IMG/VR virus record: IMGVR_UViG_2534681604_000004
Source of the DNA: a virus
Lineage: Duplodnaviria > Heunggongvirae > Uroviricota > Caudoviricetes
Strand: one strand, 5' to 3'
Length of the DNA: 36,312 nt
The notes beneath the pieces were generated by a model that was not told the origin of the DNA, did not search any database, and saw only the letters and a program-made list of their open reading frames with translations. Positions 2,709 through 36,312 of this stretch are shown piece after piece; position 1 is the stretch's first letter; each line of letters begins with the position of its first letter. The translations under genes were made by a program, and so were the position numbers.

Positions 2709-2758
2709 TAGATTGCTCTAATCTGGAGTCACCTGGCGTTTTCAGTTTGAGGTCGGAG

Positions 2759-8925: not shown

Positions 8926-8998
8926 GGCGATTTCACCTTGAAATTTTAGAGCAATTTACTTTAAAAACAGTCTGTTAATAGTGAAATTTGAATGGCGA
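8926..8998 (-). other. parS: parS centromere-like partition site
   Basis: GTGAAATCGTGGCGATTTCAC box array, central AT-rich IHF-like region and distal TGAAAT/TGGCGA boxes, directly downstream of parB; matches recalled P1 parS. Confidence 0.85.
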
Positions 8999-15901: not shown

Positions 15902-15918
15902 ATTGCTCTAATAAATAT
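15902..15918 (+). promoter_or_regulatory. C1-repressor operator-like site in a divergent promoter region (ATTGCTCTAATAAATAT)
   Basis: 16/17 match to recalled C1 operator consensus. Confidence 0.6.
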
Positions 15919-32574: not shown

Positions 32575-33248
32575 TGGCACCCACAATTTATCACCGTATC
32601 GACGGTACCAAATACAGGAATGTCTGGGTTGTTGGTGATCTGCATGGTTGCTACACCAGACTGATGTCCGAACTCCATCGTGTGGATTTTGACCCGGCGC
32701 AGGATTTACTGATATCGGTCGGCGACCTTATCGATCGCGGTACTGAAAATGTCGAATGTCTGGAACTATTGCAGATGCCCTGGTTCAGGGCAGTGATGGG
32801 GAACCATGAGCGGCTGATGATTGATGCGTTAAGTCCTGATGGCAACGTGAATAACTGGCTAATGAATGGCGGACAATGGTTCTTCATGCTGGACACTGAT
32901 CAGGAAATATTAGCCAGGGCGCTGGTGGAGCTGGTAAAGCGTCTGCCCTATATCATTGAGTTGAACACCGGGCAAGAAACTATCGTTATAGCCCATGCCG
33001 ACTATCCGGATAATGAATACCAATTCGGTAAGGAGGTGCCGCTTTTCAACGTTGTCTGGGCGCGCGAGCGTATCAGTGATTCGATGGATGATATTGGTGG
33101 CGAAATTTCGGGCGCAGATCGTTTTATCTTTGGTCACACTCCGGTGAAAAGCCCGAAGACATTCTGGAATCAGCATTATATAGACACTGGTGCCGTATTT
33201 TGCGGAAACCTGACATTGATGAAAGTGAAAGGTGATGGTGCAGCATGA
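32571..33248 (+). CDS. ppp: Ser/Thr protein phosphatase, lambda-PPase / PrpA family, about 225 aa
   Basis: GDLHGCY, GDLIDRG, GNHE and near-collinear similarity to recalled lambda phosphatase. Confidence 0.9.
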
Positions 33249-33946
33249 AGATTGCTTTAGTTCTTCGCTCTGGTGGTGACTATTACGCTTCCGATGTGCA
33301 GTGGCTGGTTAATCAACTGCCAAAAGGCTATGAAATTATTTGCCTGACAGACCTGAAGCGTTTACATGTACCTAGCGTCAAAGTTGTCCCATTGATCAAC
33401 CAGTGGCAAAAGTGCCGTGGCTGGTGGGCGAAAATCGAGTTGTTCCGACCGGATATAACCGATGATCTGTTCTATCTGGATTTGGACACGGTTATTGCCG
33501 GTGATATACGCCCAATCCTTGAGAATCCACCAACCAGCTTCACCATGCTTAGGGATTTTTACCATCCACAATATCGTGGTAGCGGTGCCCTGTGGATACC
33601 AAATAGTGTAAAAGCGCATATCTGGAGTGCATTCTGGCAAGATCCGGAAGGTTGGATTGCTCGTTGTGTTACTACTGAATGCTGGGGTGATCAGGGGTTT
33701 TTGCGGAAGGTTATGGGTGATGATACACCAGCATTTCAGGATCTGTATCCGGGATGGTTTGTAAGTTACAAGGCCGATGTTGTGAAACCTGGTTCGAAAT
33801 ATGCGAGCGCGCGTTACTCCAGGGGGAATGGGGCATTACCAAAAGACTGCCGAATAATCTTTTTTCACGGCAAACCGCGACCTCGCGAAGTGTCAGAGGA
33901 TTGGCTTCCCCTTATCAGCTCATTTTTTGAGCGAGAATCAGAATAA
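33245..33946 (+). CDS. hypothetical protein with DxD-like motif ([11 protein letters not shown]), 233 aa
   Basis: ATG overlaps the ppp stop (ATGA). Confidence 0.5.
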
Positions 33947-33947
33947 T

Positions 33948-33964
33948 ATTGCTCTAATAATTCC
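33948..33964 (+). promoter_or_regulatory. C1-operator-like site (ATTGCTCTAATAATTCC)
   Basis: 13/17 match (first 13 positions) to recalled consensus; paired with an inverted copy 37 bp away. Confidence 0.5.
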
Positions 33965-33972
33965 ATATTTTT

Positions 33973-34000
33973 AAAACGTGATGTACACTCATCACGTTTT
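33973..34000. terminator. bidirectional terminator hairpin (AAAACGTGATG TACACT CATCACGTTTT) flanked by inverted operator-like sites
   Basis: 11-bp perfect stem with A/T runs. Confidence 0.6.
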
Positions 34001-34013
34001 TTATTAGAGCAAT
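33997..34013 (-). promoter_or_regulatory. C1-operator-like site, inverted copy (TTATTAGAGCAAT on plus strand)
   Basis: Reverse complement ATTGCTCTAATAAAAAA. Confidence 0.5.
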
Positions 34014-34027
34014 CTACAAGGTGCACT

Positions 34028-34246
34028 ATGTGGCCATTCCGACGGAAATATCACTACTGGCTGATCGCCTTTGTTACGCCGTCCGGCGATATCAGGCATG
34101 TCATCACCAGGTATCGCAACAAGAGACTCACCTTAGCCAGAATTTTACAGGCTGCCATAGGTGAGGGACTGGATACAAATTGCGTAGTCCTTCCTCCTTC
34201 ATACTTAGGAAAAATGACCGAAGCACAAGCTAATACGGAACTTTGA
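34028..34246 (+). CDS. small hypothetical protein, 72 aa
   Basis: Track ORF immediately downstream of the operator pair. Confidence 0.4.
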   Translation: MWPFRRKYHYWLIAFVTPSGDIRHVITRYRNKRLTLARILQAAIGEGLDTNCVVLPPSYLGKMTEAQANTEL

Positions 34247-34247
34247 A

Positions 34248-35510
34248 ATGAGCACTTCAGCACAAAACCAATCAATCGAAAATGTATCTATCCCTGACGT
34301 CCTGAATGCCGGTATCCCGGCCATTATCCAGAACATCCGGGCCGCGCAACGCCGCGTTAGTTGTGATGACCTCACAGCACGTTTTTTTGATAATGCGGTT
34401 CAGTCAGCGGAGATGCTTCACGCACAGCTTATTGATGTTTATAACGCAGAAGCTGATAGCCATAACTCCCTGGTAGATGCAGCTGAAAATATGCAGTTGG
34501 ATCTCGGTCTGAAGGGTAAAGAAATTGAAGAGCTTCAGCTGGAAATTGAACATTTGAAACGCCAGCAACAGGACGCGATCGACGATGCGACGCATGACGC
34601 CAACCAGCGTGCTGATAATGCCGAACGTATAAGCATTGAGCTGGAAACAAAACTCAATGAAATGACCGCGATGGTTGAACTGCGGAACTCACAGATTTCA
34701 ACGCTAAAATCTCAATATAAAGAGATCATGAAACTTGATCCTTTTAACCTTGAGAAACGCTATAACAAAGCTAAAAGCGAGCGACAGGAACTGCGTAAGC
34801 AGGTCGCCGATCTTAACCAACAGCTCAAAAAAACTATTAAAGATGCAAGCGAAGCGCGCGTGGCATTTGCTAATAAAAAAGCAGAGGTTACCGCGCTGGT
34901 TAATGAGAATGCCAAATTTGCGACGCTCAAGAAGGAAATGTATGGCATTACTGAGCGCCGTTTCCCTGCAAGCAAACTTCATCCGACGTTAGGGCAAATC
35001 TCCTTCTTCCCGCGCCTCCTGGCTTATGGGATCTCATCGCCTAAAGAGTTCAATAACGAGCGTCCTTATATCGTTTCTAAGCTGGACTTTGCTTATCAGT
35101 TCTGCTGCGACATGGGCTATGCCATTGATATCCGAATCAACGAATGGTTGATGCCAAACTTCCAGCCGTTGGCCATTTTCCGCGAGTTCCAGCCGGAAGG
35201 TTGGGTAGAGTTCTTCCATGAAATGATCTGTAAAGAGATGGAAAGCCGCCGCCCGGAACTGGTCCGCCGTGTCGAGTGGGCGCAAGAGGTTATGTTGGCA
35301 GATGCAGAGCTACCGTTCGAACCGGAATTCATTGATGAACTGGCCAATAAAGGGCTGCATAGCCTATTTGATGTAGTTACCCGCCGTCATGAGCAGTTGG
35401 TTGTTGAATTGGGTTTAGAAGAAACTGCGGCAAGAAGACTTCTCGATGTTTGCTATGCACGTAGCGATGCATGGGAAAAAGAGAACGGCGGTACTATTTA
35501 CGTTCGCTGA
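34248..35510 (+). CDS. coiled-coil protein with conserved-looking C-terminal globular domain, 420 aa
   Basis: Track ORF; central heptad-like region (residues about 80-220). Confidence 0.55.
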   Translation: MSTSAQNQSIENVSIPDVLNAGIPAIIQNIRAAQRRVSCDDLTARFFDNAVQSAEMLHAQLIDVYNAEADSHNSLVDAAENMQLDLGLKGKEIEELQLEIEHLKRQQQDAIDDATHDANQRADNAERISIELETKLNEMTAMVELRNSQISTLKSQYKEIMKLDPFNLEKRYNKAKSERQELRKQVADLNQQLKKTIKDASEARVAFANKKAEVTALVNENAKFATLKKEMYGITERRFPASKLHPTLGQISFFPRLLAYGISSPKEFNNERPYIVSKLDFAYQFCCDMGYAIDIRINEWLMPNFQPLAIFREFQPEGWVEFFHEMICKEMESRRPELVRRVEWAQEVMLADAELPFEPEFIDELANKGLHSLFDVVTRRHEQLVVELGLEETAARRLLDVCYARSDAWEKENGGTIYVR

Positions 35511-35530
35511 TAGTTACAGTGTCACTTTTA

Positions 35531-35565
35531 ATGCTGGTGGAGTGCGTCCCACCAGCATTTTTTTC
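35531..35565 (+). terminator. rho-independent terminator (GCTGGTGG AGTGCGTC CCACCAGC then ATTTTTTT)
   Basis: Stem-loop plus T-run. Confidence 0.7.
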
Positions 35566-35583
35566 GTCCAATGAGGAGGGCAT

Positions 35584-35868
35584 TTGAGTATTTTCAACCA
35601 ACACGCACACCATGAACGTCCGTATATCGTCATAGTTGATATTGATGGAACAATATCAGAGGCAACTGAAGACAGACTGCATTTGCTTCCGCCACCAGGT
35701 AAAGGTGCATTAACAAAGGACTGGAACGAGTTTAATCTCGCCTGTGACACTGATACTCCCATAACTCCAGTTATTGATATTGTGCGCCAGTTGTCCAGCA
35801 TTTACACGCTCTGGTTTGTAACCGGGCGCTGTGAGATAGCCAGGGATAAAACACGAGCCTGGTTGCGT
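35584..35868 (+). pseudogene. HAD-superfamily phosphatase-like gene, 3' end truncated by IS1 insertion
   Basis: TTG start with GAGGAGGG RBS; motif I VIVDIDGTI; reading frame runs straight into the IS1 terminal repeat at 35869. Confidence 0.6.
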
Positions 35869-36312
35869 GGTAATGACTCCAACTTATTGATAGTGTTTTA
35901 TGTTCAGATAATGCCCGATGACTTTGTCATGCAGCTCCACCGATTTTGAGAACGACAGCGACTTCCGTCCCAGCCGTGCCAGGTGCTGCCTCAGATTCAG
36001 GTTATGCCGCTCAATTCGCTGCGTATATCGCTTGCTGATTACGTGCAGCTTTCCCTTCAGGCGGGATTCATACAGCGGCCAGCCATCCGTCATTCATATC
36101 ACCACGTCAAAGGGTGACAGCAGGCTCATAAGACGCCCCAGCGTCGCCATAGTGCGTTCACCGAATACGTGCGCAACAACCGTCTTCCGGAGCCTGTCAT
36201 ACGCGTAAAACAGCCAGCGCTGGCGCGATTTAGCCCCGACGTATCCCCACTGTTCGTCCATTTCCGCGCAGACGATGACGTCACTGCCCGGCTGTATGCG
36301 CGAGGTTACCGA
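35869..36312 (-). mobile_element. IS1-family insertion sequence, partial copy, inverted relative to the copy at 1-424
   Basis: Begins with GGTAATGACTCCAACTTATTGATAGTG; reverse complement is identical to window positions 1-424 wherever the two overlap. Confidence 0.92.
35884..36093 (-). CDS. insB: IS1 InsB transposase C-terminal fragment
   Basis: Track ORF identical in protein sequence to 200-409. Confidence 0.8.

Follow-up and report, generated by a model that had tools for sequence, protein, structure and literature searches.

What are two inverted operator-like sites, enclosing a hairpin, doing in the short gap between two genes that are read in the same direction? The sites in question lie at 33948-34013 of the window, by which we mean the whole 36,312-nucleotide stretch of DNA that was analysed, taken from a tailed-phage record in IMG/VR (IMGVR_UViG_2534681604_000004). 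The original prediction, made from the letters alone, saw here an inverted pair of C1-operator-like sites around a bidirectional terminator, and suggested that the arrangement could loop DNA or couple termination to repression at the head of a three-gene operon. Our analysis indicates that this 66-bp pmgQ-pmgR intergenic module is very probably the Op86a/Op86b (OpmgRa/OpmgRb) operator pair of a P1-like plasmid prophage, in which two C1 sites are combined with a terminator and the early promoter PpmgR. The features of the locus, in order along the window, are as follows.

33245-33946, + strand: pmgQ, the last gene of the pmgL-pmgQ unit (ORF list and P1 annotation)
33948-33964, + strand: Op86a (OpmgRa), ATTGCTCTAATAATTCC, the same as the annotated P1 operator; 21.7 bits with the weight matrix described below
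33949-33954 and 33972-33977, + strand: PpmgR as annotated (GenBank 'predicted sigma 70 promoter'), with -35 TTGCTC and -10 TAAAAC
33961-33966 or 33962-33967, with 33984-33989, + strand: alternative promoter inferred here, with a weak -35 (TTCCAT or TCCATA, respectively), -10 TACACT and a start at about 33996
33973-34005, + strand: intrinsic-terminator-like hairpin AAAACGTGATG-TACACT-CATCACGTTTT running into the tract TTTTTTATT (folding and conservation)
33997-34013, - strand: Op86b (OpmgRb), ATTGCTCTAATAAAAAA, the same as the annotated P1 operator; 20.2 bits
34017-34022, + strand: Shine-Dalgarno-like AAGGTG, 5 nt ahead of the pmgR ATG (direct reading)
34028-34246, + strand: pmgR, 72 aa (ORF list and P1 annotation)
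34248-35510, + strand: pmgS, 420 aa, coiled-coil, 98.6% identity to P1 PmgS
35530-35566, + strand: second terminator, AATGCTGGTGG-AGTGCGTC-CCACCAGCATT followed by TTTTT, with its hairpin at 35530-35559 (dedicated scan, -18.1 kcal/mol)
35584-35868, + strand: 5' portion of pap (HAD/PNKP-type phosphatase), which breaks off at the IS1 junction after codon 95 of 168
35869-36312: IS1, with its terminal repeat GGTAATGACTCC... at the start, running off the window end (sequence)

An operator pair annotated in P1

Window positions 33200-35600 share 97.7-98.5% identity with P1, P7, SJ46, RCS47 and other Punavirus records (approximately 98% to P1 over 2.4 kb), and the window is mostly collinear with these records. 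The 66-bp module itself is 100% identical to the P1 sequence, the gene order matches too, and both sites lie between pmgQ and pmgR exactly as P1 Op86a and Op86b do. In the P1 record (AF234172) they are annotated as OpmgRa, formerly Op86a, at P1 82152-82168, a 'monovalent C1-controlled operator' that controls pmgR and pmgS, and as OpmgRb, formerly Op86b, at P1 82201-82217; the P7 record (AF503408) names the two sites Op(sht[a]) and Op(sht[b]). The inverted site pair is a rediscovery of this feature, which was already known from both records. Since the GenBank notes for Op86a and Op86b cite no earlier deposited sequence, unlike those for Op21, Op68 and Op88, these annotations may themselves be sequence predictions. 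A search of the accessible literature returned no C1 binding, footprint or transcript-end data for the Op86 locus, and the name 'Op86' had 0 occurrences in the full texts so searched.

The P1 genome has 22 sites at which C1 recognises a 17-bp asymmetric consensus, ATTGCTCTAATAAATTT, and Lxc forms a ternary complex in which C1 binding is stronger (PMC8546580). Both sites studied here match this 17-bp asymmetric consensus. The 13-nt sequence ATTGCTCTAATAA is found exactly at 33948-33960 (+) and 34001-34013 (-), the two arms being 100% complementary, and when up to two mismatches are allowed it has 10 matches in the window compared with 1.1 expected, a count reached by 0 of 100 shuffles. Whilst the pairing of the sites was correctly seen at the outset, their separation was not: the 13-mers are 40 nt apart rather than 37 bp, and the full 17-bp operators (33948-33964 and 33997-34013) have 32 nt between them and lie 49 bp apart centre to centre. 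The P1 record lists 20 C1 operators; with Op86a and Op86b left out, a weight matrix was built from the remaining 18, and both sites score between the extremes of these other operators (6.7-28.7 bits; for example, Olpa at 20.0 and Oref at 21.9). The A-rich 3' end of Op86b (operator positions 12-17, AAAAAA instead of AAATTT) is the T-tract of the terminator read on the other strand. The pair is also close to predicted promoter hexamers, and a step to early-class expression, described below, falls at the pmgQ-pmgR boundary.

Across the window the matrix found eight sites of at least 15 bits, compared with 0.13 expected. The sites at 947, 15902, 20447 and 30324, which together with the pair at pmgR had been taken to sketch the C1 regulon of the element, were all recovered at 24.9-28.7 bits and correspond to Op53, Op68, Op72a and Op82, but that sketch omitted Op72b (20458) and Op83 (31231). 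The operators elsewhere in the window are therefore:

947-963, + strand: Op53 (OrepL), 24.9 bits, same sequence as the P1 operator
15902-15918, + strand: Op68 (Odmt), 26.7 bits
20447 (+ strand) and 20458 (- strand), spanning 20447-20474: Op72a/Op72b (Obanab), bivalent, overlapping inverted sites, 28.7 and 24.7 bits
30324-30340, - strand: Op82 (O26), 25.9 bits
31231-31247, - strand: Op83 (Oppp) orthologue TATGCACTAATTAATTT, 20.7 bits, one mismatch to P1

The window ends in IS1 ahead of the c1 region (P1 93231-94082). Several observations were made along the way. The position of Op55 (Orlf), at 2712-2728 (+), reads ATTGCTCTAATCTGGAG and scores below 10 bits compared with 16.1 in P1, and it may be a degenerate operator here. 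A weak operator-like sequence, ATTGCTCTAAAATTTCA, is found at 8939-8955 (-) with 11.8 bits, approximately 100 bp upstream of the late promoter LP23 (8829, -), and P1 has no annotated operator at the counterpart of this position. In the P1 record, Omat (Op2b; AF234172 2628-2645) is annotated on the minus strand with a length of 18 bp but agrees with the C1 consensus only as its reverse complement, CATGCACTAATAAATAT, which looks like a strand error. Two late-promoter-like sequences, AAGTGACTGGTGATAACCT at 28576 (-; 16.9 bits) and AAGTGACTTTAGCCAGCAT at 1863 (-; 15.8 bits), are absent from the annotated P1 late promoters in the matrix. For positions 1-875 the listed P1-type phage records offer no near match, their matches beginning at 875/876, and two strong convergent terminator-like hairpins lie at this boundary, just upstream of Op53, at 802-827 (+, -20.5 kcal/mol) and 877-906 (-, -19.4 kcal/mol).

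Approximately 690 plasmids carry the region, and because nearly all of them do so at 95% identity or above, close relatives say little about constraint on the module. The diverged relatives are Cronobacter phage JK004 (PmgS 69%), Salmonella Newport pCVMN1543 (PmgS 68%) and the IMG/VR lineages L090-92, L093 and L094, PmgS identity across these five lineages being approximately 68-75%. A first scan of viral contigs gave loci that were 98-100% identical only, and L093 and L094 were reached with the Newport PmgS as query; scanning genome contigs with PmgS yielded just two Escherichia loci, both near-identical. Of the fetched loci that cover the pmgQ-pmgR junction (approximately 100), all contain the module, and it measures 66 bp in all but one. 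Aligned, the 20 distinct variants show little or no change in the operator cores and the T-tract, the 13-nt core of Op86a being unchanged in all but one of them, and the differences between lineages fall in spacer columns 14-25, the stem and the loop. An Rfam search of 33500-35700 gave no match at E values up to 1.

The hairpin and the genes on either side

The hairpin between the operators is, as originally described, a perfect 11-bp one: its arms (33973-33983 and 33990-34000) are 100% complementary over 11 nt and enclose the 6-nt loop TACACT. Folding of a 91-nt stretch gave -26.9 kcal/mol with a z-score of -7.05, and on the + strand the 7-bp core of the stem contributes -8.5 and the full 11-bp stem -12.9 kcal/mol. 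The hairpin starts 26 nt past the pmgQ stop codon, so that a stable stem-loop with a U-tract directly behind it follows the end of a gene, which is the anatomy of a + strand intrinsic terminator. This anatomy is retained in all six lineages, in which the + strand energy lies between -12.9 and -13.5 kcal/mol and the TTTTTTATT tract never varies. AF234172, the P1 record, contains no terminator annotations at all. A standard promoter and terminator scan missed both the annotated PpmgR and this hairpin, which a dedicated scan does find; the miss of the hairpin is probably due to the stem extending into the T run.

The pattern of change within the stem is also informative. Across the 20 variants 97.3% of cells in the hairpin helix are paired, compared with 41-58% for the whole structure in slid controls, and the pair-breaking cells among P1-type singletons number six. 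In each of the five diverged lineages both partners of two pairs have changed (G-C to A-U and A-U to G-C), although these lineages share ancestry and each compensatory pair may stand for as few as one event, so the compensatory change seen in the + strand terminator may derive from few independent events. A further six pairs vary on one side to G.U, to which most of the one-sided changes lead, and such wobbles are valid only in the + strand RNA. On the minus strand, the hairpin reaches only -5.8 kcal/mol in JK004 and L094, the T-tract is missing from JK004, Newport and L094, and the neighbouring genes are all on the + strand, with no minus-strand gene converging on the hairpin. We therefore consider the hairpin most likely to be a one-way (+) terminator that ends the pmgL-pmgQ unit. 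The description of it as bidirectional agrees with the anatomy on the + strand and is unsupported on the minus strand, where neither the hairpin nor the T-tract is conserved and there is no convergent gene. A long functional RNA hairpin formed by the two operator arms was also considered and rejected: no compensatory change was seen in the operator-arm helix among the 20 variants, giving no separate sign that the arms pair in RNA, and their conservation is explained by C1 binding.

If the hairpin ends one unit, the question of what begins behind it can be approached through expression. In P1vir RNA-seq data (PMC8201110, Table S1) values are given as limma log fold changes relative to a no-phage control, the absolute values of which are confounded by gene length, and we therefore used the length-independent contrast of the 30-min minus the 10-min log2 change. 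In the wild-type host this contrast is 4.0-4.6 for pmgL to pmgQ, 1.79 for pmgR, 1.71 for pmgS, 2.78 for pap and 1.9-2.4 for pmgT to pmgV, and the pattern is the same in a dksA host. At 10 min, with the caveat of gene length, pmgR and pmgS stand at 9.0 and 10.0, beside 10.0 for ant1, 9.4 for hrdC and 9.7 for pmgT in other C1-controlled early units, and pmgQ stands at 7.0 though it is three times longer than pmgR. These data are gene-level, 3' ends and terminator efficiency being outside their resolution, and at that level the abrupt late-to-early switch at pmgQ-pmgR supports an early promoter inside the module. In a CRISPRi study (PMC10695390) guides placed upstream were not polar on pmgR, which is uninformative here because the pmgR guide itself scored as non-essential.

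Downstream of the module, pmgR is essential in P1, where its deletion leads to unjoined heads and tails (PMC9024508); its product matched no Pfam family. A second terminator fills part of the gap from the pmgS stop (35510) to the pap start (35584); P1 has it too, unannotated, and JK004 and L094 keep it with stems of other sequence. Residues 53-158 of the intact Pap of P1 match PF25109 (HAD_PNKP) at 5e-12. The second terminator and the different early/late ratio of pap agree with the GenBank note, in which pmgR and pmgS are the only genes said to be under the operator's control. The proposal that the module heads an operon with a 72-aa protein, a 420-aa coiled-coil protein and an IS1-truncated HAD gene is thus supported for pmgR and pmgS but not for pap, which is set apart by the terminator and by its early/late ratio. 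With regard to pap and what follows it, window positions 35511-36312 are identical (802/802) to the E. fergusonii plasmid pRHB38-C01_2 (NZ_CP057105.1, 97,856 bp), in which the gene list continues past the IS1 region with phzF-family, narI and narW, chromosomal-type cargo in a P1-like plasmid. In Newport, L090, L093 and L094 pap is absent, and an Op88-type operator, ATTGCTCTAATAAATAT (26.7 bits), lies approximately 65-105 bp past pmgS; this operator was located at L007 3526, L090 2828, L093 1708 and L094 2864.

Promoter placement and a model for the module

Where exactly the early promoter lies is less clear than that there is one. The annotated -10, TAAAAC, is without the final T of the consensus, and is replaced by TGAAGC in JK004 and by TGAAAC in two P1-type loci. 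The hexamer in the terminator loop, by comparison, is always TAnnnT: the P1 type has TACACT, L094 has TATTAT and the other four lineages have TATCAT. We scored both with a crude sigma-70 matrix, made from consensus frequencies, on which both placements are weak (4-9 bits). The annotated pair obtains 4.0 bits in P1 and -3.4 in JK004, and in each of the six lineages no -10 scores higher than the loop hexamer (5.2-9.2 bits). A guide to geometry is provided by Plpa (P94), which the P1 record names without the word 'predicted', and whose -35 and -10 begin at operator positions 15 and 37; the loop hexamer stands at this same -10 offset from Op86a. A search for transcription-start mapping in the P1 literature found none. 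Because the loop hexamer is conserved, best-scoring and placed as in Plpa, a start near 33996 is favoured, at roughly even chances. The fuller proposal, that the annotated PpmgR is misplaced, that the real -10 is the terminator loop hexamer and that the 66 bp form a conserved, maximally compacted stop-and-restart cassette, is a tentative one which we would place a little below evens.

It is possible, though we lean towards doubting it, that the promoter is instead exactly as annotated. Transcription would then start at approximately 33984, within the loop, Op86a alone would occlude the promoter, and Op86b would act as a roadblock at about +13 to +29. GenBank places the promoter in this way, the geometry (positions 2 and 25) is the same as that of the named P1ban at Op72ab, and TTGCTC retains the TTG of the -35 consensus. 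Set against this are a -10 that has no near-invariant final T and that loses the key second-position A in JK004 and in two P1-type loci, as well as crude scores that fall below those of the loop hexamer in every one of the six lineages and are negative in JK004. A late promoter was ruled out, since the best match to the Lpa type (a -22 box resembling AAGTGACTT plus a -10) between 33601 and 34030 scored 3.1 bits, compared with 11.7-23.1 for the 10 annotated late promoters.

Should the loop hexamer prove to be the -10, the arms of the hairpin would flank it, the two inverted repressor sites would clamp the promoter from both sides, and the U-tract would at once be the region in which transcription starts and the 3' end of Op86b. 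With a start at about 33996, Op86a would cover approximately -49 to -33 and Op86b approximately +1 to +17. More generally, we picture the module as two monovalent, asymmetric 17-bp C1 sites in inverted orientation, with two overlapping signals between them. The first would be the + strand intrinsic terminator, stopping transcription that arrives from pmgL-pmgQ; the second would be the early sigma-70 promoter PpmgR, whose transcripts would begin in or just after the hairpin. Under either placement of the promoter these transcripts would be without the 5' arm of the hairpin and so should escape the terminator. In the lysogen, C1 with its corepressor Lxc would occupy Op86a, on the -35 side, and Op86b, at the start or early transcribed region, and keep the virion-assembly genes pmgR and pmgS silent; on infection or induction the two genes would be expressed early, the unit ending at the second terminator past pmgS. 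The one-way terminator would insulate pmgR-pmgS from the late pmgL-pmgQ unit.

The inverted arrangement of the sites invites other interpretations, two of which were put forward in the original prediction. We think it unlikely that the inverted sites cooperate through C1-C1 contact to loop or bend the 49 bp between them in a repression complex. C1-mediated looping is reportedly seen with the Op99 sites, and spacing is rigid, at 66 bp in all but one of the roughly 100 loci and in all diverged lineages; however, a centre-to-centre distance of 49 bp leaves very little length for a protein-mediated loop, the packing of a terminator and a promoter between the sites would explain the fixed spacing equally well, and we found nothing that points to looping over this distance. 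A coupling of termination to repression, in which C1 at Op86b would modulate the termination of pmgQ read-through, is marginally harder still to credit, as is its companion, the bidirectional terminator. Positions 12-17 of Op86b do coincide with the terminator T-tract, but a repressor at 33997-34013 would stall the polymerase before the hairpin had been transcribed and so act as a plain roadblock, and nothing was found in favour of coupling itself. The bidirectional form can draw on the perfect palindrome of the P1-type hairpin, with its four T on the minus strand, but is opposed by the strand bias and gene orientation described above.

It is very improbable that the palindrome instead serves at the DNA level, as a site for another dimeric protein or as a cruciform. 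The compensatory changes would preserve a DNA palindrome too, but a T.G position in JK004 and L094, and G.T in several variants, can pair only in the + strand RNA and would disrupt a palindrome in the DNA, and the invariant T-tract directly 3' of the stem, 26 nt past a stop codon, fits a terminator. Our preferred reading therefore remains that of two C1 operators enclosing a one-way terminator and an early promoter.

Relation to known systems

Taken together, the 66-bp module is real, functional-looking and deeply conserved, and it is ordinary. What is added to the known annotation is the one-way terminator with its covariation, the step to early expression, the probable -10 in the loop and the pap-proximal second terminator; these are refinements of annotation and not a new kind of system. 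They improve the annotation of P1 and should be of use for P1 phagemid engineering and for reading P1 transcriptomes. For this element, the module confirms that P1 immunity circuitry is kept in a plasmid prophage over the essential assembly gene pmgR, and beyond P1 biology it matters little and opens no new question.

The closest known counterpart is P1 OpmgRa/OpmgRb, which is the same feature: the same 66 bp in the same place between pmgQ and pmgR, with the same genes downstream. There is no difference in the module itself, and here the downstream pap is interrupted by IS1. Within P1, Op72ab (ban) and Op99ab (c1) likewise bring two inverted C1 half-sites to bear on one promoter, although those pairs overlap by 6 bp in a 28-bp unit whereas Op86a and Op86b stand 32 bp apart and enclose the hairpin and the promoter core. 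Plpa with Olpa (P94/Op94) has a single C1 operator just upstream, and its -35 and -10 offsets are shared with the loop-hexamer placement; unlike the Op86 module, it has neither a second, downstream operator nor a terminator hairpin around its -10. Finally, the module resembles the canonical intrinsic terminators that precede a restart promoter in phage operons, with the same stem-loop (a 7-bp core containing G+C) and U-tract after a stop codon and then a promoter, but differs from these terminator-restart pairs in that its promoter elements and its hairpin overlap and its U-tract also forms the 3' end of a repressor operator.
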